This document shows positions 21,294-54,772 of a DNA stretch of 55,147 bases, one piece after another. The stretch comes from Bacillota bacterium (GTDB lineage: Bacteria > Bacillota > TC1): the NCBI GenBank assembly GCA_024635955.1, contig JAGXHX010000082.1, positions 1-55,147 of the forward strand. Direction: 5' to 3'. How positions within the stretch are numbered: position 1 is the stretch's first letter; the number at the start of each line of letters is the position of its first letter. The notes beneath the pieces were generated by a model. That model worked only from the letters and a program-made list of their open reading frames with translations, did not search any database and was not told the origin of the DNA. The position numbers were made by a program, and so were the translations under genes.

Positions 21294-21540
21294 AAAAAGA
21301 GTCAATCATCCAAGGGACGATTGACTCGTGGTGCCACCCAATTTTAAATTATTTTCATAATTCCTTTAAAGGTACTAACATACCCCGACCCTTTAACGTG
21401 GGACATACGGCTTGATATACTAATGTTTCCATTTTCCACCAGCTTCTCACAAATCCATTCCTAATTGTTACTAACACTGAATTTCCACCATCATCAGCTC
21501 TCTATTGTCGTTTGCCAATAAGTACTCACCTTTGCTCAAC
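21294..21540 (-). promoter_or_regulatory. T-box leader (tRNA-Trp-responsive) with intrinsic terminator, upstream of trpE
   Basis: Minus strand shows an AGAGAG bulge, a GAA-UGG-A specifier context (UGG at 21457-21455) and the T-box sequence AAUUGGGUGGCACCACG. A terminator follows: GAGTCAATCGTCCCTTGGATGATTGACTC plus T5. Confidence 0.85.
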
Positions 21541-21630
21541 GAATTTAAATTAACTCTAATATTTAATTCTAATATCTTATACGCTTGTATTTTAGCATAT
21601 CTATTTCTAAAAGACCATAGCTTTCTCCAA

Positions 21631-30201: not shown

Positions 30202-30445
30202 AAAAAATCCTCTTTTCTTCTTAAGAAAAGAGGGTCTACAGCCTTAGATGATACATCTTTGCCATATGAATATACCTCCTTCCGAAATATAACCGCATTT
30301 TTTTCAGTAATCGGTCTCCTGGCTTACACCTAAAACTCAGTATTCTGTCTTCCCATCTTGCGACAGTGACATTATAGAAACTGATCAGTGCTTACAGTAG
30401 CGGAGGCTGCAACAGATTTTAACTGTTTTCCCGTTCATTACTAAA
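30202..30445 (-). promoter_or_regulatory. Cobalamin (B12) riboswitch with intrinsic terminator
   Basis: Minus strand reads GGGAAAACAGTTAAAATCTGTTGCAGCCTCCGCTACTGT. The B12 box GTAAGCCAGGAGACCGATT lies at 30327-30309. The terminator is CCTCTTTTCTTAAGAAGAAAAGAGG plus T6 (30234-30202). Confidence 0.87.
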
Positions 30446-30483
30446 ACTATATTAATGCTTACCTTGATAATGATAGCATATAC

Positions 30484-40265: not shown

Positions 40266-41042
40266 ATGCTTTTAATTATTGATATTGGTAACACCAGTAT
40301 GTTGTTTGGTGTTTATCATGGTGATTTACTAAAAGAAAAATTCACGATAAAAAGCCATAAAACTATCACCCCTGATGATTTAGGTATTAGTATAATCCAA
40401 TACTTAACTCTATTTAATCTTGATAAGAATCAACTAGAATCTGTTATAATAGCTTCAGTTGTACCCCAATTAACAGAGACCTTGGACATTGCCCTTAAAA
40501 AATATTTGGAAATACCTACATTTATAGTAGGCAAAAACCTACCGATAGATTTAGATTGTTCCGCCTATTTAAGTCAGGCAGGTATTGACCGTCTAATTAA
40601 TATATTTAGTGGAATCCAAAAATATGGTAACTCATTAATTGTTATAGATATAGGAACAGCTCTAACAATTGATGTTGGAGATAATAATGGTGCATTCATT
40701 GGTGGAATTATTTTTCCCGGAATACATAGTCTAAATAATGCTTTATCAAAAAACACAGCTAAATTACCTTTAGTTGATTTAGAGAAACCTAATCATATTA
40801 TTGGAAAAACAACCGAAGAATGTATATTAAGTGGTGTATATTTTGGCTATATTAATGCTATTGACGGCATAATAGAGAAAATGAAGGCCGAACTACCATA
40901 CTCTGTAACTGTAATAGCTACAGGCGGGTACTCCAGCCTCCTAAGTGAATGTCATAATATTAATATTTTCGATGAAAATTTAACTCTTGATGGCATCCGT
41001 TTTATTTATGAAAATAAAATCAAATCTCTTTTAAAAGATTAA
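40266..41042 (+). CDS. coaX: Type III pantothenate kinase
   Basis: [14 protein letters not shown] and VIATGG motifs. Confidence 0.9.
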
Positions 41043-41481
41043 CCATTTCAATAGCTGTAACTGCAGCTTCAAAACCTTTGTTACCTGCCTTTGTTCCAGC
41101 TCTTTCTATTGCTTGTTCAATATTATCAGTTGTCAACACACCAAAGATTATTGGCACTTCTGTTTCTAAGCCCACCTGAGCTATTCCTTTAGATACTTCA
41201 TTGGCTACAACATCAAAGTGTGGAGTAGAGCCTCTAATAACAGCACCCAAACAAATAATACTGTCATAACGGCCTGTCTTGGCCATTTTTTTTGCGATAA
41301 GTGGTATTTCAAAAGCTCCTGGCACCCAAGCTATCTCAATTTTAGAATTATTCCCTCCATGTCTTTCTAATGCATCTATAGCACCTCCTAATAGTTTACT
41401 TCCAATAAACTCGTTAAATCTGCTAATCACAATCCCATATTTTGCTTCTCCTGAAATTAAGTTTCCATTATAAGTTTTCAT
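41020..41481 (-). CDS. ribH: 6,7-dimethyl-8-ribityllumazine synthase
   Basis: [20 protein letters not shown] and KGFEAA motifs. Confidence 0.93.
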
Positions 41482-41501
41482 TCTTTCTCCTCCTAATTGA
41501 A

Positions 41502-42695
41502 CTAATCTAATATATGTCCCATTTTGGCTTTTTTAGTATTCAGATAATATTCATTTTTTTCATTATGGTTCACTTGTATTGATACTCTTTCCACAATTTC
41601 CAACCCATAACCATAAAGTCCAGTAATTTTCCGAGGATTATTGGTCATAAGTCTGACCTTTCTTATCCCTAAATCATAAAGTATTTGAGCACCGATACCA
41701 TATTCACGCATATCTTCTGGAAAACCTAGCATCACATTAGCTTCTACTGTATCATAACCTTGATCTTGCAATTCATAAGCTTTAATTTTATTTATTAAAC
41801 CTATTCCCCTACCCTCTTGCCTCATATAAAGTAAAACACCTTTACCTTCTTCTGCAATTTTTTTCATTGCAGCATCGTACTGTTGTCCGCAATCACATCT
41901 TAATGAGCCAAATGCATCACCAGTCAAGCATTCAGAATGAACTCTCACTAAAACATTATCATCATGGTCTATATCCCCCATTACAAGAGCTACATGATGT
42001 TCACAATTCATTTTATCTACGTATCCTACTATTTTAAAGTCACCATATTTTGTAGGCATTTTAGCATTAGCTACTTTTTCTATCAAGGTTTCATTTTGTC
42101 TTCTATATGCAATTAAATCTTCAATAGTTATAATTTTCAAATCATGTATTTTTGCATATTCCATTAATTCTGGAACGCGAGCCATAGAACCATCATCATT
42201 CATAATCTCGCATATTACACCAGCAGGAAATAGTCCTGCAATCTTAGCTAAATCAACTGCTGCTTCAGTATGTCCTGCTCTTTTTAATACACCACCCTCT
42301 TTTGCACCTAAAGGGAATATATGCCCCGGTCTAGTAAAATCTTTACTTTTTTTATTTTGACTAACTAGATCCAAAACTGTTTTAGCTCTTTCTTTTGCTG
42401 ATATTCCAGTAGTACAATTTATTGAATCTACAGAAACAGTAAATGCTGTTTCTTTAGGATCGGTATTCAAAACTATCATAGGCTGAATATCAAGCTCTTC
42501 CAATCTATTCTTTTTCATTGGAACGCAGATTAATCCTCTTCCATACTTTGCCATAAAGTTTATACTTTCTTGTGTAACTTTTTCTGCTGCCATAAGAAGA
42601 TCACCTTCATTTTCCCTATCTTCATCATCAACGACTATAATCATCTTCCCTTGTTTAATATCTTCAATTGCTTCATTAATTGTATTGAATTTCAC
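41502..42695 (-). CDS. ribBA: Bifunctional 3,4-dihydroxy-2-butanone-4-phosphate synthase / GTP cyclohydrolase II
   Basis: [11 protein letters not shown] for RibB, and HSECLTGD...CDCG plus RQEGRGIGL for RibA. Confidence 0.93.
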
Positions 42696-42710
42696 TTTAT
42701 ATCTCCTCTC

Positions 42711-43355
42711 TTACATAAACCCATTTTTATTTAAAAATTCCATGGTCATAGGAACAACATCTTTTTCTTTAAAATCTAATATTCTCTCAATGTATTTCCC
42801 TATAGAATCACATTCAATATTTATCTTTTCACCAATTTTTTTATCAAGTAAAGTGGTTTCTTTTTTTGTATGGGGTATTATTGATAAAATAAAACTATCT
42901 TTTGTTATATCCCCTACAGTTAAACTAGCTCCATCGATAGCTATAGAACCTTTTTTTATTATATATTTCATCAATGTTCTCTCTGCTTCTATTTCAACTA
43001 CAGTAGAATTCTCAAACTCCTTGAATGAAACTATTGTGCCAAATCCATCAACATGTCCAGAAACAATGTGTCCTCCAAGTCTGTCACCTACCATAAGTGC
43101 TCTTTCCAGATTAACTCTACTTCCTGTGTTCATAAATGATATATTTGTTACTTTAGCTGTTTCAGGCATGAAATCAACCTCAAAAGTAGAATTATCAAAA
43201 CTTGTCACTGTTAGGCAAATACCATTGACACTAATACTATCCCCAATTTTTATATCTTCAAGCATCTTACTGCAACCAATCTTTAATCTGCCTGATTTGT
43301 AACCTATTGCTACACCCTTAATTATTCCTATTTCTTCAATTAATCCTGTAAACAT
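42711..43355 (-). CDS. ribE: Riboflavin synthase
   Basis: MFTGLIEEIG start, with duplicated GDSISVNGICLTV and GSIAIDGASLTV lumazine-binding repeats. Confidence 0.93.
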   Translation of the reverse strand: MFTGLIEEIGIIKGVAIGYKSGRLKIGCSKMLEDIKIGDSISVNGICLTVTSFDNSTFEVDFMPETAKVTNISFMNTGSRVNLERALMVGDRLGGHIVSGHVDGFGTIVSFKEFENSTVVEIEAERTLMKYIIKKGSIAIDGASLTVGDITKDSFILSIIPHTKKETTLLDKKIGEKINIECDSIGKYIERILDFKEKDVVPMTMEFLNKNGFM

Positions 43356-44465
43356 TTATTTACCTCTCTTTTTTACATAGCCTTCAATTAGGATATCTTG
43401 ACCGTAAACTTTTCTTTTTATATTTATTAATTCAATAGCATCAACCATCTGAAGAATACCCATACCACCAACTGGGGTTGGTGCACTAGAACCACCTATT
43501 ATCTTAGGTGCAATATATGCCATTACTTTATCAACTAAGTTATCAGTTAAAGCACTATAGCTTACTTCTCCACCACCTTCAATTAAAATGCTATCAACAC
43601 CTCTATTTCCCAATACTTTTAGCAAACTAACAAGATCTACTTTTTCATTCTTTTGATTTATAACCAGAATTTCTGCACCAGTTTCTTCAATAGCAGCAAT
43701 CTTTATAGGCTTTGCTTTTTTTGTTACTACTACAATTGTTTTGGAATTTGAATCTATATTAAGAACTTTAGCAGTTAAGGGTATTCTACCTTCGCTATCA
43801 AGGATAATTCTAATCGGATCTTTCCTTGTCCTTCTATTTATTCTAGTATTAAGACTTGGATCATCAGCAATAATTGTACCTATACCTACCATTATTGCTC
43901 CAACCCTATTTCTTAATTCATGTACTTTTTGTCTAGATTTATCATTTGTTATCCATTTAGAATCACCAGTAGTTGAAGCAATTTTACCATCTATGGTCAT
44001 TGCATACTTAAGATAAACATATGGTATTTTTCTGGTTATATATTTAACAAATATTTCATTAATTTGTCTGGCTTCCTCTTCTAGCACTCCAACTATTACT
44101 TTAATATTATTTTTTTTTAGTATTTCAATTCCTTGTCCTGCTACTTTAGAGTTTGGGTCCAGCATAGCAATTACTACTTTCTCAAATCCTTCTTCCACAA
44201 GTCTGTTTGCACATGGTGGTGTTTTTCCATAATGAGAACAAGGTTCAAGATTCACATAAATCGTTGCACCTTTCACAGATTCTTTAGCAGAGTTAATAGC
44301 TTCAATTTCTGCATGATTGCCTCCATAAAATTTATGATATCCTTCTCCAATAATTTTCCCCGCTTTTACTATAACTGCTCCTACCATTGGATTTGGACTA
44401 GTCTTTCCTGCTCCTTTTCTGGCTAATGTAATTGCTCTTTTCATAAATTTTTTGTCATCATCCAT
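43356..44465 (-). CDS. ribD: Bifunctional diaminohydroxyphosphoribosylaminopyrimidine deaminase / 5-amino-6-(5-phosphoribosylamino)uracil reductase
   Basis: Deaminase zinc motifs HAE and PCSHYGKTPPC, plus a C-terminal reductase domain (LIEGGG). Confidence 0.93.
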   Translation of the reverse strand: MDDDKKFMKRAITLARKGAGKTSPNPMVGAVIVKAGKIIGEGYHKFYGGNHAEIEAINSAKESVKGATIYVNLEPCSHYGKTPPCANRLVEEGFEKVVIAMLDPNSKVAGQGIEILKKNNIKVIVGVLEEEARQINEIFVKYITRKIPYVYLKYAMTIDGKIASTTGDSKWITNDKSRQKVHELRNRVGAIMVGIGTIIADDPSLNTRINRRTRKDPIRIILDSEGRIPLTAKVLNIDSNSKTIVVVTKKAKPIKIAAIEETGAEILVINQKNEKVDLVSLLKVLGNRGVDSILIEGGGEVSYSALTDNLVDKVMAYIAPKIIGGSSAPTPVGGMGILQMVDAIELINIKRKVYGQDILIEGYVKKRGK

Positions 44466-44480
44466 AGTAATTCCTCCAAT

Positions 44481-44695
44481 AAAAAAGCTCTGAAGTTAAA
44501 CTTCAGAGCAAAATTTTTATAATTACATATATATATATCTTTATATGACACTATTGCTACATATAAAGTATATGAACTATACTTAACTTCTCCCATCCAG
44601 ACTTTACTGTCGGTCTTGGAATTACACCAAGTCAACCCTTTTGAGGCTCGTGGACTATTACCACCGGTAGGGAATCTCACCCTGCCCTGAAGTTC
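44481..44695 (-). promoter_or_regulatory. FMN riboswitch (RFN element) with intrinsic terminator
   Basis: Minus strand reads CAGGGCAGGGTGAGATTCCCTACCGGTGGTAATAGTCCACGAGC...TTGGTGTAATTCCAAGACCGACAGTAAAGTCTGGATGGGAGAAG. The terminator is GCTCTGAAGTTTAACTTCAGAGC plus T6 (44509-44481). Confidence 0.9.
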
Positions 44696-44712
44696 TTATT
44701 TAATTGAGTTTA

Positions 44713-49851: not shown

Positions 49852-50184
49852 TCATATTTGAATACTAATTATTGGTAAAACGATAATTACCGGTTTTTCA
49901 TAAGGATGAATAGTTTTTATAATATCTATCACTAAACTAAGCAAATTCCTAGAACAACAAAACTCCACCTTTATTTCATCTTCTTGTGAAACTTCTCCTA
50001 TATCTCCACTGTATGGATTAGAACCTTTTAAAGGCCTCCAGTAACTTACTACTTTCGAAGTGGTTATACAATTATCATATATTTCATCAATTGTAAGTGC
50101 TCCTATTTCATTTAGTTTTTTTCTCAATAACAAAAAAAATTCTTCCGGAATATATGTTTCTATTTTATAATTATCATAATTCAT
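49852..50184 (-). CDS. Small alpha/beta protein resembling the PII-like insert domain of NIF3/YqfO proteins (COG3323-like)
   Basis: The pattern KIETYIPEEF...WRPLKGSNPYSGDIGEVSQEDEIKVEF...HPYEKP matches, as I recall it, the NIF3 cap-domain pattern. Good GAGGAG SD. Confidence 0.4.
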   Translation of the reverse strand: MNYDNYKIETYIPEEFFLLLRKKLNEIGALTIDEIYDNCITTSKVVSYWRPLKGSNPYSGDIGEVSQEDEIKVEFCCSRNLLSLVIDIIKTIHPYEKPVIIVLPIISIQI

Positions 50185-50307
50185 CTTAACTCCTCTTTAA
50201 TTGTCTCTATATAAAAGATATTACTCTTATTAAGTAATCTTTTCAATACTATAAAAATCTGATACACTAATCTTATAAGAATACTATGAAAAAAGGAGGT
50301 AATTTTT

Positions 50308-50529
50308 ATGGCAGAGATACATATTAATGTTACAGGAGAAAATTGTCCAGTACCCTTAGTAGAAACTAGAAAAGCAGTAAAAAAGGCCCAGCCAGGTGAC
50401 ATCATAGAAATAACAGGCTCTAATTCAGCCTCTAAAAAAGAAATTCCTATGGCGGCGGCTGCATTAAAGCTTAAAGTAGTAAGCATTGAAGAAACAGATG
50501 GAATTTGGAAAATTAAAATTGAAAAATAA
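50308..50529 (+). CDS. TusA/SirA-like sulfurtransferase
   Basis: 73 aa with a GENCPVPLVETRKAVKK motif (conserved CPxP cysteine). AGGAGG SD. Confidence 0.8.
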   Translation: MAEIHINVTGENCPVPLVETRKAVKKAQPGDIIEITGSNSASKKEIPMAAAALKLKVVSIEETDGIWKIKIEK

Positions 50530-50542
50530 GGAGAATAATATA

Positions 50543-50962
50543 ATGGAAGATAAAACTACGATTGTTGTCCAAAGTGGAGATATGGATAAGTTATATAGTG
50601 CCCTAATTATATCTAATGGTTCTTTAGCAATGGGTATGGAAGTTTCCCTCTATTTTACATTTTGGGGACTTTTACGATTAAAAAAAGGTGGTCTTAATAA
50701 AGGTCCATTATCAAAAATGAATTTTCTAAGCTTAGGTAGAAGAATGATTCTTAGTCGAATGAAGAAAAATAATGTAGCTAGTTTGGACCACTTGTTAGAC
50801 GATTTCAAAGAACTTGGTGGACGAATAATAGCTTGTGAAATGACAATGGGTATTATGGGTATTCAAAGAAGTGATTTAAGAGAAGATCTAATTGATGAAT
50901 ATGGTGCTGTTGGCACTTATATTAAAGAAGCAAGAGATTCAAATATAACCTTATTTATATAG
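50543..50962 (+). CDS. DsrE/DsrF-like family protein (COG2210-type)
   Basis: About 139 aa with the start TTIVVQSGDMDKLYSALIISNGSLAMG and a single Cys in IIACEMT. ATG at 50543 after AAGGAG; the track start lies inside the TusA-like gene. Confidence 0.72.
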   Translation: MEDKTTIVVQSGDMDKLYSALIISNGSLAMGMEVSLYFTFWGLLRLKKGGLNKGPLSKMNFLSLGRRMILSRMKKNNVASLDHLLDDFKELGGRIIACEMTMGIMGIQRSDLREDLIDEYGAVGTYIKEARDSNITLFI

Positions 50963-50977
50963 AAATGGAGTAATCAA

Positions 50978-52150
50978 ATGGATAAAAATATATATATGGA
51001 TAATGCTGCAGCCACACGGCTAGATGAAAAAGTAATGGAAGCTATGAAACCTTTTTTCTTCGAAAATTATTCAATAGCTACCTCAGAATTCGGTTATTCT
51101 ATGGGAATAGATGCTAAAAATGCATTAGACGAGGCTAGAACTTTTCTAGCTAAAAGTTTGGGTGCAGAAAATACTGAGTTTATCTTTACCTCAGGCAGTG
51201 CAGAATCAAGCAATCTTGCCTTAAAAGGAGTAGCCAAAGCCTTAGGATCAAAAAAAGGCAAACATATAATAATAAGTAAAATTGAAGATTTCCCTGTTCT
51301 TTATAGTGCTAAAACCTTGGAGAAAGAGGGTTTCAAGATCGACTATATTGATGTTGATGAGTTTGGTTTTGTAAATATTGAGGAGTTAGAAAACTTGATA
51401 ACTGAAGAAACTATTCTTGTTTCTATTCAACATGCAAATCAAGAAATCGGAACATTACAAGATATTCAAAAAATAGGGAACCTCTGTTGGAAAAAGCACA
51501 CTATATTCCATACTGATGCTACTCATAGTTTTACTAGAGTCCCTCTTGATGTCAAAGATATACCTGCCGATTTAATAACTGTTTCAGCTCATACTATCCA
51601 CGGTCCTAAAGGAATTGGTGGTCTATATATTCGTAAAGGTACACCAATAGCCAAAATAATGGATGGTGGTTTTCAAGAATTTAATTTAAGGGGTGGTATG
51701 GATAATATTCCTGGTGCTGTAGGATTTGCAAAAGCTGTTGAATTAGTAAATGATGAAGAAAACAAGAGGCTACAAGCAATGAGCAATAAAATTGTTGAAA
51801 TGATTGTTGCAAAAATACCAGAAGTAACAATTAATGGAGATAAAATTAAAAGGTTACCACAAAATACTAATATTAGTTTTCATTTTGTTGAAGGTGAATC
51901 AATTACACTCCATCTTGATATGTATGACATAGCTGTAAGTACAGGTTCTGCTTGTTTCAGCAGATCTCTTGAAGCTAGTCATGTAATAGCTGCTATTGGC
52001 GGAGATCATGAAAGAGCTCATGGTTCTATCAGGTTTAGTTTAGGTAGGTATAATACAATGGAAGAAGTTGAATATGTAGTAGAAACCCTTGCTGATATTA
52101 TTAAAAAATTAAGAATAATCAGTCCCTTGGGAAAAGAGAAGGAGGTATAA
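50978..52150 (+). CDS. IscS/NifS-like class V aminotransferase-fold protein lacking the PLP-binding lysine
   Basis: Collinear with cysteine desulfurases (YMDNAA, FTSGSAESSN, HANQEIG, HTDATH, HGPKGIGGLYIR, STGSAC, RFSLGRYNT). The SGHK motif reads SAHT, with Thr206 at codon 51593-51595. Confidence 0.85.
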   Translation: MDKNIYMDNAAATRLDEKVMEAMKPFFFENYSIATSEFGYSMGIDAKNALDEARTFLAKSLGAENTEFIFTSGSAESSNLALKGVAKALGSKKGKHIIISKIEDFPVLYSAKTLEKEGFKIDYIDVDEFGFVNIEELENLITEETILVSIQHANQEIGTLQDIQKIGNLCWKKHTIFHTDATHSFTRVPLDVKDIPADLITVSAHTIHGPKGIGGLYIRKGTPIAKIMDGGFQEFNLRGGMDNIPGAVGFAKAVELVNDEENKRLQAMSNKIVEMIVAKIPEVTINGDKIKRLPQNTNISFHFVEGESITLHLDMYDIAVSTGSACFSRSLEASHVIAAIGGDHERAHGSIRFSLGRYNTMEEVEYVVETLADIIKKLRIISPLGKEKEV

Positions 52151-52152
52151 AG

Positions 52153-52788
52153 ATGTCATTTCCATATAATGATATAGTATTAGAACATTTTAAGAATCCA
52201 AGAAATATTGGAAGTATTGAAAATCCTGATGGTAAAGCCATGGAGGGTAGTCCGGCTTGTGGTGACATGGTCTCACTTTATCTTAAAGTTGATCCAAAAA
52301 CTTTGATAATAACTGATATTAAATTTGAGTCTTATGGTTGTGCTTCAAATATTGCAACTGGCTCAATAATAACTGAACTAGCTAAAGGTAAAACAATTGG
52401 AGAAGCTAAAAAAATTACCTGGAAACAGGCTTCAGATGCTCTTGGCGGTTTGCCTTCTATTAAGGTTCATTGTTCTGTATTAGCTGTAGAATCTTTAAGA
52501 GCTGCTATACAAAATTATGAAGAGAAACATGGTCTAATTACTGAAAAGGTAGAAACTACTGAAGAAGTCATAAGGAAAAGATTGAAGAAAGTTATGAATC
52601 CAATCAAGGGTTTGGATATGGTAACTACCAATCTTGTTAAGGAAGTTAGTGTAAAAGATGGTATAGTACATATATCAATTGATCTTCCAGAAAATCATCA
52701 ATTTGCCAATGCAATTAAATCTGACGCTATAGAAAAAATCGAAACACTTTGGGATGTTAAAGAAATTAATATAGATTTCACAGAATAA
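52153..52788 (+). CDS. IscU/NifU-N-type Fe-S scaffold fused to a C-terminal DUF59 (MIP18/SufT-like) domain
   Basis: IscU motifs GSPACGDMV, YGCASNIA and KVHCSVLA occupy residues 1 to about 125. Residues about 135-211 follow the DUF59 pattern (V..RLKKVMNPIKGLDMVTTNLVKEVSVKDGIVHISIDL) but contain no Cys. Confidence 0.82.
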   Translation: MSFPYNDIVLEHFKNPRNIGSIENPDGKAMEGSPACGDMVSLYLKVDPKTLIITDIKFESYGCASNIATGSIITELAKGKTIGEAKKITWKQASDALGGLPSIKVHCSVLAVESLRAAIQNYEEKHGLITEKVETTEEVIRKRLKKVMNPIKGLDMVTTNLVKEVSVKDGIVHISIDLPENHQFANAIKSDAIEKIETLWDVKEINIDFTE

Positions 52789-53126
52789 TGAACTGAACCC
52801 CAAATTTTGAACAGTTTAATTAAGCAACTCTTAGGGACTGAATCCGGTATTGTACTGGACTCAGTCCTTTTAATTTGCATTTAATTCGTTTATTGTTGTA
52901 ATAATATATGTATTCTTCAATTTCGCTCATCAGATATTCTGTGGAATTGAATTTATATTTCGTACATGCTCATGACTTGTTCCTAAGATATGTGCACTCT
53001 GTTTGGGAGACATTCCTTCCTCTACAATTCTAATAACTACTTCTAATCTTTCTTCATACGAATATTTTGACATAAAAATGCACCTCCAAATGTTAGTTTT
53101 TTGTCCAACATTCGGGGTGCACTTCA
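52789..53126 (-). mobile_element. IS3-family (IS150-like) internal-deletion derivative, 338 bp, non-autonomous
   Basis: Imperfect terminal inverted repeats (TGAACTGAACCCCAAATTTTGAACA and TGAAGTGCACCCCGAATGTTGGACA, about 20 of 26 matched) and flanking TAA/TAA direct repeats. It retains the OrfA N-terminus (MSKYSYEERLEVVIRIVEEGMSPKQSAHILG) and the transposase C-terminus (EYIYYYNNKRIKCKLKGLSPVQYRIQS) in different frames. Confidence 0.75.
52835..52871 (+). terminator. Hairpin plus T4 inside the IS remnant that could terminate the upstream operon
   Basis: GGACTGA..CCGGTA-TTG-TACTGG..TCAGTCC followed by TTTT on the plus strand. Confidence 0.45.
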
Positions 53127-53174
53127 TAATTAAATTAGTATGAAATCAAAAAAAATCTACATTTAATTATAGGT

Positions 53175-53630
53175 TTAATCTTTATTTTTAAGATCTTCTA
53201 TTAAGGCTTTCATTTCTTTTATCTCTTTTACCTGAGCCTTAATTATACCATCTGCTAATTCTCTAACTCTAGGATCTTCTATTTTTGCACGTTTACTGGT
53301 TAAAATTGCTATAGAGTGATGAGGAATCATACCTTCCATATAATCTACATCACCTATAGTAGTTTGATTTCTCATTAAATAAAATGATGATACAAATATT
53401 AATAAACTTATTCCTACTATAGCCATATTAACCTTTTTATCTTTAAGCATACCTAGCATAAATAAAAGCATTACTACTGCCATAACACAGGTGGAAAGTA
53501 TTGTCATATATAATCTTTCCTCGCTAAAGTATATATGATCTAATTGATAAGTATTAAGATACATAGCTACATACATAAAAATCCCAGCAGTTATAATCAT
53601 TCCAAAAAATTTAGCATAAGTTTTTTTCAT
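53175..53630 (-). CDS. DUF305 domain-containing membrane protein
   Basis: Three N-terminal TM helices and a C-terminal MIPHHSIAILTS...ADGIIKAQVKEIKEMK motif typical of DUF305. Confidence 0.72.
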   Translation of the reverse strand: MKKTYAKFFGMIITAGIFMYVAMYLNTYQLDHIYFSEERLYMTILSTCVMAVVMLLFMLGMLKDKKVNMAIVGISLLIFVSSFYLMRNQTTIGDVDYMEGMIPHHSIAILTSKRAKIEDPRVRELADGIIKAQVKEIKEMKALIEDLKNKD

Positions 53631-53896: not shown

Positions 53897-54772
53897 ATGA
53901 TTATGATGGATTTAGAACAATATCATCAAATTATCGAATTTTCTCCTAATATGATCTGGAGATCAAATCTTACTACCGAATGTGATTATTTTAATAAGAT
54001 TTGGCTAGATTTTACAGGCAGAACTCTTGAAGAAGAGCTTGGTTTTGGTTGGGCGCAGGGAGTTCACCCTGATGATTTTGATAGATGTGTAAAAATTTAT
54101 GTAGACAGTTTTGAAAAACAACAAAAATTTGAAATGGACTACCGTCTTAAAAGATATGACGGTCAGTATAGATGGATAAATGATAGAGGAACTCCTTTCT
54201 ATAATGAAAATGGTGACTTTTTAGGTTATATTGGTAGTTGTATGGATGTTACTGAAAAAATTGAAGGCCAGACTCTTAAAGAAATGGCTCAAACAGATGC
54301 ACTATGCAATACTTATAATAGACAATATTCAATTCAATTGTTATTAGAATTATTTAATAATATAAAAGATAGTCCTGCCCCATTTTCACTTCTGATGATA
54401 GATATTGATGATTTTAAAACTATTAATGATCAATATGGACATTTAGCTGGGGACAAAGTTCTTTCAACAATTGCCAGTTTAATAAAAAGTGAATTAAGAA
54501 GTCCTGACATTTTTGGTCGATATGGTGGTGACGAGTTTCTTGTTGGTTTAGTTAATACAGATAAGAATGATTCTATTGGTGTAGCTCAACGGATTAGGAC
54601 CACAGTTAATAAATCTGAAATAAAACTGAAAAGTGGCGAAACTATACATGCTACTTTAAGTATTGGCGTAACAACTTTAAATAAAGAAGAAAATCTCGAT
54701 GAATTTATAAATAACGCTGATAAAAAACTATATGAAGCAAAAAGAAATGGTAAAAATTCATATAAAGCCTAA
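53897..54772 (+). CDS. PAS domain-containing diguanylate cyclase (GGDEF)
   Basis: PAS region (YRLKRYDGQYRWINDRGTPFYNENGDFLGYIGSCMDVTE) and a GGDEF domain with an intact GGDEF motif and an RSPD I-site 5 residues upstream. The start may be the ATG at 53903. Confidence 0.87.
   Translation: MIMMDLEQYHQIIEFSPNMIWRSNLTTECDYFNKIWLDFTGRTLEEELGFGWAQGVHPDDFDRCVKIYVDSFEKQQKFEMDYRLKRYDGQYRWINDRGTPFYNENGDFLGYIGSCMDVTEKIEGQTLKEMAQTDALCNTYNRQYSIQLLLELFNNIKDSPAPFSLLMIDIDDFKTINDQYGHLAGDKVLSTIASLIKSELRSPDIFGRYGGDEFLVGLVNTDKNDSIGVAQRIRTTVNKSEIKLKSGETIHATLSIGVTTLNKEENLDEFINNADKKLYEAKRNGKNSYKA

Follow-up and report, generated by a model that had tools for sequence, protein, structure and literature searches.

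An operon of four genes in the genome of a Bacillota bacterium (GTDB lineage Bacteria; Bacillota; TC1) encodes, in this order, a TusA-like protein, a DsrE-like protein, an IscS/NifS-fold protein without the lysine that holds pyridoxal 5'-phosphate (PLP), and an IscU scaffold fused to a DUF59 domain (Table 1). It lies on contig JAGXHX010000082.1 of assembly GCA_024635955.1, and the whole stretch of 55,147 nucleotides (nt) that was analysed is referred to below as the window. We judge the odds to be slightly in favour of this operon being a self-contained, PLP-independent variant of minimal IscS-IscU iron-sulfur (Fe-S) cluster assembly, one that would be fed by a TusA/DsrE persulfide relay. The minimal IscS-IscU pair with a non-catalytic IscS is already known, and precisely this quartet has already been recorded in Methanosarcina, though without being interpreted. 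What appears to be new, as far as checked, is the breadth of the quartet and the recurrent, apparently convergent loss of the lysine in company with TusA/DsrE.

An IscS-like protein with a rebuilt PLP pocket

The product of gene 3 belongs to the Aminotran_5 family (PF00266, 232 bits) and aligns end to end with IscS structures. A preliminary description of this DNA had called it an IscS homologue that has lost the PLP lysine and kept the mobile-loop cysteine, and the alignment bears out both points. The lysine site, which reads SAH-K-MYGPKG in the active enzyme 9wep and SSN-D-IYGPKG in the Archaeoglobus fulgidus IscS, reads SAH-T-IHGPKG (Thr206) in the window protein, and Cys326 is kept in the loop STGSAC and is invariant in the clade of close relatives. 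The PLP-stacking histidine, a point absent from that description, is also gone (IEDFPVL, with Asp104, versus IEHHSIL in the active enzyme). Still present are Asp180, Ser203, His205, Arg352 and the Cys loop. Among the closest 120 homologues (70-85% identity), the lysine site is Thr in 111 and Asn, Ser or Ile in seven, the motif being unmatched in the other two; Lys occurs in none, nor does it occur in any sampled clade gene with a readable motif.

The pocket was compared between 91 clade members and 96 Lys-containing relatives, in the numbering of the window protein. Relative to the latter, the clade shows N33 replaced by V, with an inserted Phe38, H104 by D, N155 by Q, Q183 by H, and K206 by T or L. 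By comparison with E. coli IscS, we take the N33 site to be a substrate contact, H104 to stack on PLP, N155 and Q183 to contact PLP O3', and K206 to form the Schiff base. Each of the five replacement residues is at least 95% conserved within the clade; H104D, N155Q and Q183H reach at least 97%, and the Lys-containing relatives keep His, Asn and Gln at these sites in 95-99% of cases. Since the replacements are themselves so strongly conserved, the pocket looks remodelled under selection for a new role rather than decayed neutrally. The former PLP pocket is filled by the clade-invariant Asp104, Phe105, Gln155, His183, His208, Phe232 and others, and its signature positions are 33, 38, 104, 105, 151, 155, 183, 206, 208, 232, 312, 327 and 346.

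The protein does not reach the NCBIfam equivalogs for NifS/IscS (TIGR03402, 438 against a cut-off of 531; TIGR02006, 377 against 643). Indeed, no NCBIfam equivalog cut-off is reached by any of the four proteins, as would be expected of families without a curated functional definition. To judge from the sequences, the annotation "cysteine desulfurase" that all these IscS-like proteins now bear is probably wrong.

Two putative carrier proteins and a fused scaffold

The first two genes encode small proteins of sulfur-carrier families, each with the cysteine that the preliminary description had pointed out. Gene 1 is a TusA (PF01206, 74 bits against a Pfam cut-off of 28.6) whose CPxP motif, GENCPVPL, places the cysteine at position 13. 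It is homologous to the E. coli TusA of the IscS-TusA complex 3lvj (PDB comparison) and lies far below all four NCBIfam equivalog cut-offs (TusA proper, YeeD/TsuB, YedF). Neither Cys13 nor Glu45 varies among 82 clade members. Lys44 and Glu45 are conserved, and a hand alignment pairs them with Arg50 and Asp51 of E. coli TusA, which have been proposed to activate the TusA cysteine (PMC2854127). Gene 2 is a DrsE_2 protein (PF13686, 118 bits, Pfam). Its sole cysteine, Cys98 in IIACEMT, aligns with a Cys of the PDB relatives 2qs7 and 3pnx and is invariant in 79 sequences. With 65 bits against a cut-off of 210 for NCBIfam DsrE2 (NF047629), it is not DsrE2 proper.

The reading of gene 4 as an IscU with three cysteines and an aspartate, fused to DUF59, is supported by Pfam, which finds NifU_N (PF01592, 143 bits; IscU residues 5-126) followed by a C-terminal FeS_assembly_P/DUF59 domain (PF01883, residues 137-206, 53 bits against a cut-off of 23.5). 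The cluster ligand set of the IscU part (Cys36, Asp38, Cys63, His106 and Cys107) is invariant in 82 sequences, and its top PDB match is the A. fulgidus IscU (4eb5_C, E = 4e-39). At the site of the HscA-binding motif (LPPVK) the window IscU reads LPSIK, and no hscAB genes lie nearby. DUF59 domains often carry one conserved cysteine, but the fused domain is cysteine-free (0 Cys in residues 131-211). The PF01883 domain is common to the gene 4 C-terminus and the SufT/DUF59 (MIP18 family) Fe-S maturation factors, from which the window domain differs in being fused to IscU and in being without cysteine.

Conservation and distribution of the quartet

A gene-neighbourhood survey had been suggested in the preliminary description, and it found the quartet to be syntenic in both Bacteria and archaea. 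In a species-level scan (one genome each), about 500 genomes had a relative and the best 80 loci were inspected. TusA, DsrE, IscS(Thr) and IscU::DUF59 follow one another in that order in 77 of the 80, as far as the contigs reach; such an arrangement in independent genomes is far beyond chance. For example, Acetobacterium bakii and Acidaminobacter hydrogenoformans have the identical gene order within unrelated flanks. The Bacillota hosts are Acetobacterium, Acidaminobacter, Anaerobium, Dethiosulfatibacter, Parasporobacterium, Syntrophomonas and Christensenellaceae, other bacterial hosts are Dehalococcoidia, Thermodesulfovibrionales and Deltaproteobacteria, and the archaeal hosts are Methanobacteriaceae, a "Thermococci" metagenome-assembled genome and Altiarchaeales. 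Acetogens, organohalide respirers, sulfate reducers, syntrophs and methanogens are represented, and metagenomic homologues number in the thousands.

Cys13, Cys98, Cys326 and the IscU ligands are 100% conserved in about 80-90 clade members. In a library clustered at 50% identity, the IscS-like clade comes down to one full-length representative (623 bits), the next full-length sequence scoring 448 bits at no more than 49% identity; it is therefore a compact clade, set well apart from other sequences. The identity of about 68% between archaeal and bacterial copies points to strong constraint together with horizontal spread. A fifth conserved gene was sought in the flanks of the 80 loci and none was found, any flanking family being present in at most 8 of the 80.

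There are a few variations on this arrangement. In some Chloroflexota, one or two genes stand between the IscS-like gene and IscU::DUF59 (L071:7145-8628, L074:1876-2772 and L081); the insert of L074 belongs to the Asp/Glu/hydantoin racemase family (Pfam), and those of L071 look similar by eye. Rhodanese proteins lie beside the cluster in Parasporobacterium paucivorans (L058:4082-5299) and on one metagenome contig (L147:4144-4575), with the active-site loops CRSGARA and CRTGNRS, and these are the only candidate persulfide-loading enzymes near any cluster. In three Anaerolineae genomes (L016:3600-8340, L025:390-5131, L057:2874-7656), a T-type IscS, that is one with Thr at the lysine site, sits in a different, conserved block. 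Its Pfam-confirmed members are a small 4Fe-4S protein (ferredoxin), a stand-alone DUF59 that bears a cysteine (TAPFCP), a ferritin-like protein, a glutaredoxin and, as the fifth, a fusion of ferredoxin:thioredoxin-reductase-beta with rubredoxin; a nitroreductase, a Crp/Fnr regulator and a rubrerythrin-like protein were recognised by eye. This block is a second, thiol-redox context for the dead IscS.

Recurrent lysine loss and its linkage to TusA and DsrE

The lysine is missing from other IscS lineages as well. Lys occupies the site in 105 of the nearest 150 representatives at 50% identity; some other residue (T, L, D, M, P, S, I, Q or R) stands there in about 19, and the motif is unreadable in 26. 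Gene orders around individual representatives include IscS-IscU-TusA (P0254, with T at the site, and P0250, with L), IscS-IscU::DUF59-TusA (P0248, with L) and ferredoxin-TusA-IscS (P0276, with an A. fulgidus-like D). Two Lys-containing representatives (P0243, P0245) show IscS-IscU only, and a third (P0246) has no TusA or DsrE.

For a broader count, metagenomes were scanned for a non-lysine codon before the motif [ILVMF][HY]GPKG[IV]G, which returned 120 contigs, and TusA and DsrE were counted by profile searches on the same strand within 2.5 kb of IscS. TusA was found at 74 of 79 T-type loci (DsrE at 74 as well), at 22 of 39 D-type loci (DsrE 11), at 18 of 28 Q-type loci (DsrE 16) and at 10 of 41 L-type loci (DsrE 4); neither stood beside any of the 11 K-type genes, which are Lys-containing genes in the same fetched loci. 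Outside the window's own clade, TusA or DsrE thus lies beside 47 of 101 lysine-less genes as opposed to 0 of 11 Lys-containing ones (Fisher p = 0.0024). One more Lys-containing relative that was examined is also without both (0/12 altogether), and a rough count at the level of lineages gives 6 of 10 lysine-less versus 0 of 6 Lys-containing (p = 0.03). Because many contigs stop 1-2 kb from IscS, the positive fractions are underestimates. The divergent neighbours were confirmed by Pfam as TusA and DrsE_2/DsrE, and all have the CPxP or the DsrE-family cysteine, respectively.

Each of the D, Q and "TAHL" groups has its closest matches among Lys-containing sequences (maxima 59-66% identity), the other groups and the T/L clade being more distant (at most 56%). 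This suggests at least four independent losses of the lysine. From these sequence relationships, it appears that TusA and/or DsrE have been linked repeatedly to lysine-less IscS lineages of apparently separate origin (T/L, D, Q and others; at least four). The Leu-type sister clade, 62-66% identical, combines the same four components in the order IscS-IscU::DUF59-TusA-DsrE; it had been expected to be Methanosarcina and turned out to be Anaerolineae/Chloroflexota.

Some clusters of the other lineages also contain small metal-binding proteins. A double-zinc-ribbon protein of about 60 amino acids (aa; 16 loci) is encoded in Q-type clusters, as is a single-cluster ferredoxin (7 loci); in D-type (A. 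fulgidus-like) clusters the extra protein is TRASH/YHS-like and about 58 aa long (10 loci). These loci fall within L096-L214 (for example, L165:1669-1926, L154:10187-10420 and L126:1527-1751), and the extra proteins are possible iron or electron donors.

Operon layout and genomic surroundings

The four genes are co-directional, with gaps of 13, 15 and 2 nt, and all four starts are preceded at 6-10 nt by a GGAG-type Shine-Dalgarno sequence, that of the tusA-like gene being AGGAGG at 50293-50298. This is the layout first described, and re-reading it gave the same picture. The upstream intergenic region and the hairpin terminator that had been proposed as the borders of the operon were likewise recovered. 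The operon is closed by an interrupted 16-bp hairpin (52833-52869) with UUUUAAUUU behind it; the fold has a free energy of -30.7 kcal/mol (z = -5.4), and none of 200 shuffled sequences is as stable. A simple terminator scan overlooked this hairpin, which was detected by folding and shuffles. In the 5' intergenic region, an Rfam search gave no riboswitch and no other match, and a promoter scan of the + strand gave nothing convincing; comparison with the upstream DNA of relatives revealed no conserved 5' element or motif. The GC content of the operon (31-34%, versus about 30% in the surroundings) is not anomalous. A second IscS, IscU, TusA or DsrE was sought within the window and none was found.

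The divergent CutA-like gene upstream, of which the C-terminal half is weakly CutA1-like, is not kept beside the quartet in other genomes, and the DUF305 and diguanylate cyclase genes of the downstream flank are not conserved with it either. The small open reading frame (ORF) just past the terminator has no Pfam match; by eye it resembles the N-terminal helix-turn-helix of an IS3-family transposase OrfA, and it may be a remnant of an insertion sequence. Farther away, the riboflavin operon, the T-box leader and the riboswitches are the ordinary chromosomal context of a low-GC Bacillota genome.

Table 1. Features of the operon and its surroundings, in window coordinates.
Feature	Positions	Strand	Size or remarks
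TusA-like gene (gene 1)	50308-50529	+	73 aa
DsrE-like gene, DrsE_2 family (gene 2)	50543-50962	+	139 aa
IscS/NifS-fold gene without PLP lysine (gene 3)	50978-52150	+	390 aa
IscU::DUF59 gene (gene 4)	52153-52788	+	211 aa
5' intergenic region, presumed promoter	50185-50307	+	123 nt; from sequence
Intrinsic terminator, hairpin then U-rich tract	52833-52878	+	RNA folding
CutA-like gene	49852-50184	-	110 aa; Pfam E = 9e-6
Small ORF past the terminator	52930-53127	-	65 aa
DUF305 membrane protein	53175-53630	-	domain C-terminal
PAS-GGDEF diguanylate cyclase	53897-54772	+	
Riboflavin operon	41020-44698	-	RibD, riboflavin synthase, RibBA, lumazine synthase; flavin mononucleotide (FMN) riboswitch at 44581-44698
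T-box leader	21310-21548	-	
Cobalamin riboswitch	30292-30478	-	

Comparison with known systems

The nearest counterpart is the isc1 cluster of Methanosarcina acetivorans, which consists of MA0810 (SirA-like), MA0809 (DrsE superfamily), MA0808 (IscS1) and MA0807 (IscU1) (Deere et al. 2020, PMC7585200, Fig. S1). It contains the same four families in the same order as the window. This archaeon has three iscSU clusters, and its IscS1 is without the PLP residues; recombinant IscS1 proved insoluble, and the authors proposed no function for the SirA and DrsE genes (PMC7585200). IscS1 carries the clade signature (SKIEDFPVL, SAHTIHGPRG, DGGFQEFNLR and STGSACFSRSLEASHVI) and is about 66% identical to the window protein, as calculated from a sequence machine-read from the PDF of supplementary Fig. 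S2. IscU1, of 24.2 kDa, is an IscU with an extra domain and with the Cys/Asp spacing seen in the window. The isc1 cluster differs in being archaeal and in lying beside two additional genes, one for a HIT protein and one for a hypothetical protein. The shared order, the IscS1 motifs and the identity of about 66% make the window operon a bacterial orthologue of Methanosarcina isc1. The preliminary description knew of no characterised system with this four-part composition. This holds to the extent that isc1 is uncharacterised, but the quartet had already been listed (PMC7585200, Fig. S1), and a lysine-less, inactive IscS is established in A. fulgidus.

The closest solved structures are those of the A. 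fulgidus IscS2-IscU complex (4EB5, 4EB7, 4HVK; E = 8e-97 for gene 3). The lysine-less A. fulgidus IscS is inactive as a desulfurase and is thought to give a cysteine ligand to the cluster on IscU (PMC7585200, summarising Marinoni 2012, Yamanaka 2013 and Pagnier 2014). Both systems are built on a minimal IscS-IscU pair whose IscS has no PLP lysine but retains the Cys loop, and the window protein fits this pattern with Thr206 in place of the lysine, Cys326 retained and the IscU gene 2 nt downstream. In contrast, A. fulgidus IscS2 has Asp at the lysine site and keeps His104, and the A. fulgidus IscU has no DUF59 fusion. The two lineages are also separate, D-type sequences being at most 50-51% identical to the T/L clade and up to 59% identical to Lys-containing ones.

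The combination of IscS, TusA and DsrE-fold proteins is familiar from the E. coli 2-thiouridine relay, IscS-TusA-TusBCD-TusE, in which these proteins exchange persulfides. In that relay IscS is the PLP-active source of sulfur, the flow is outward to tRNA and the genes are unlinked, whereas the window has a predicted inactive IscS, encoded in a single operon together with TusA, DsrE and an IscU scaffold. TusA and DrsE_2-family proteins reportedly carry sulfane or thiosulfonate sulfur in the Rhd-TusA-DsrE2/DsrE3-DsrEFH-DsrC and sHdr relays of sulfur oxidisers, said to be known from the Dahl laboratory and from Liu et al. 2014. These relays are said to feed dissimilatory sulfur oxidation, not an Fe-S scaffold, and the window DsrE-like protein differs from their components in lying below the NCBIfam DsrE2 cut-off. 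Finally, MIS and SMS, attributed to Garcia et al. 2022, are reportedly two-gene, ancestral IscS/IscU-type systems of anaerobes and archaea; to such a minimal pair the quartet adds two carriers and the DUF59 fusion.

Proposed mechanism and alternative explanations

Although the movement of sulfur between the four proteins, its direction and the Fe-S end product are inferred, the following sequence of events would account for the composition of the operon. The IscS-like protein would no longer make persulfide from cysteine, and its dimeric fold and flexible Cys326 loop would be kept as a docking platform. Sulfane sulfur would be held as cysteine persulfides on Cys13 of the TusA-like protein and Cys98 of the DsrE-like protein, which may be loaded by a canonical desulfurase from another locus, or from polysulfide, thiosulfate, or sulfide together with an oxidant. 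From these carriers sulfur would pass to Cys326 and/or straight to the IscU cysteines, using the docking geometry of E. coli IscS-TusA in reverse. In the E. coli IscS-TusA structure the two cysteines are about 4 Å apart (PMC2854127), and the same geometry could serve transfer in the opposite direction. On IscU, the sulfur would be reduced and joined with iron to give a [2Fe-2S] or [4Fe-4S] cluster, with Cys326 perhaps serving for a time as its fourth ligand, in the manner of the A. fulgidus (IscS-IscU)2 structure, and the fused DUF59 domain would assist in handing the cluster to client proteins.

The same four proteins could also work without a relay. The IscS-like protein would then stabilise IscU and give a cysteine ligand, free sulfide would be the source of sulfur, and TusA and DsrE would serve to buffer, detect or detoxify sulfane sulfur, or would control access to the complex. 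The inactive A. fulgidus IscS, for which the ligand role was proposed (PMC7585200), is a precedent. Further, neither TusA nor DsrE lies close to IscS in several of the lysine-less lineages, sulfide is probably present where the strictly anaerobic hosts live, and E. coli TusA competes with IscU for IscS (PMC2854127). We nevertheless regard this explanation as rather unlikely, given that both carrier cysteines are invariant, that TusA/DsrE were recruited repeatedly and independently beside lysine-less IscS and never beside Lys-containing IscS, and that translational coupling in one operon argues for stoichiometric partners. It is improbable that the module works outward, sending sulfur from the IscS-like protein to tRNA thiolation or thio-cofactors after Cys326 has been loaded by another desulfurase or by IscU chemistry. 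Such a role would suit the presence of the three families of the E. coli 2-thiouridine relay, but the IscS-like protein appears unable to generate persulfide, no TusE, MnmA, ThiI or MoaD-type acceptor is conserved near the quartet in the flank survey, and the conserved fourth member is an intact IscU scaffold with DUF59.

There is very little to recommend an ordinary cysteine desulfurase that binds PLP non-covalently or via another lysine. Despite the retention of Asp180, Ser203, His205, Arg352 and the Cys loop, substitutions have removed not only the Schiff-base Lys but also the stacking His104, Asn155, Gln183 and the Asn that contacts the substrate, the clade signature shows no compensating new lysine, and the A. 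fulgidus protein, which is without the Lys alone, is inactive (PMC7585200). A module that handles selenium rather than sulfur would be equally surprising. This idea comes from the top NCBIfam matches of gene 1, which are YedF selenium-metabolism models; the matches are sub-threshold, however, with scores far under the cut-offs (37 versus 79 and 34 versus 110), no selD or selenoprotein genes are linked in the flank survey, and the conserved partner is IscU.

Several observations weigh against the relay-fed assembly that we prefer. A rhodanese is the sole candidate for a sulfur-loading enzyme near the clusters, present at 2 of about 200 loci, and none is conserved. At four loci, three from Dehalococcoidia and one from Altiarchaeales (L059:8701-10297, L062:9215-10829, L065:8709-10318, L076:8710-10369), a Lys-containing IscS-IscU pair lies within 1-2.5 kb of the quartet; since canonical pairs coexist with the quartet at these loci, and two more do so in M. 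acetivorans, the quartet is auxiliary and not the sole system. The T-type IscS of the three Anaerolineae genomes occurs without TusA, DsrE and IscU. Within 2.5 kb, TusA/DsrE are also missing from the high-GC CTAHL(I/M)YGPKG clade, the SSHL clade and about 40% of D-type loci, and the representative P0272, with L at the lysine site, has no TusA or DsrE. Such lineages mean that a dedicated relay is not obligatory for a lysine-less IscS. The competition of E. coli TusA with IscU implies that a path from TusA to IscS to IscU needs sequential binding, and the direction of persulfide transfer is not readable from sequence. The original proposal that a TusA/DsrE relay replaces the lost PLP chemistry therefore stands in part: the loss of the lysine does seem to be recurrently linked to TusA/DsrE, but some lysine-less lineages are without TusA.

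Significance

A limited literature search found nothing on this module of TusA, DsrE and IscU, and an earlier description of the relay idea is possible. The proposal is directly testable, as M. acetivorans has both the orthologous cluster and tools for gene deletion, a ΔiscSU2 strain having been published (PMC7585200); Acetobacterium carries the quartet too. The pairing of lysine loss with TusA/DsrE also provides a simple rule for annotation.

In Methanococcus maripaludis, the sulfur of Fe-S clusters comes from sulfide and not from cysteine, and "unknown protein factors" are still invoked for the sulfur route to Fe-S clusters in anaerobes (PMC7585200). With its very wide distribution, the quartet offers a concrete candidate for this kind of route, one without cysteine desulfurase chemistry, in methanogens and other strict anaerobes. 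More broadly, and as a tentative reading on which we would not yet rely, strict anaerobes of both domains may share a cysteine-independent route for sulfur into Fe-S clusters, in which environmental or metabolic sulfane sulfur would pass over DsrE/TusA thiols and a dead IscS with a rebuilt pocket to IscU. They would share this route through horizontal transfer and repeated convergent assembly, and loss of the lysine would in that case signal that the sulfur source had changed, not that the protein had decayed.

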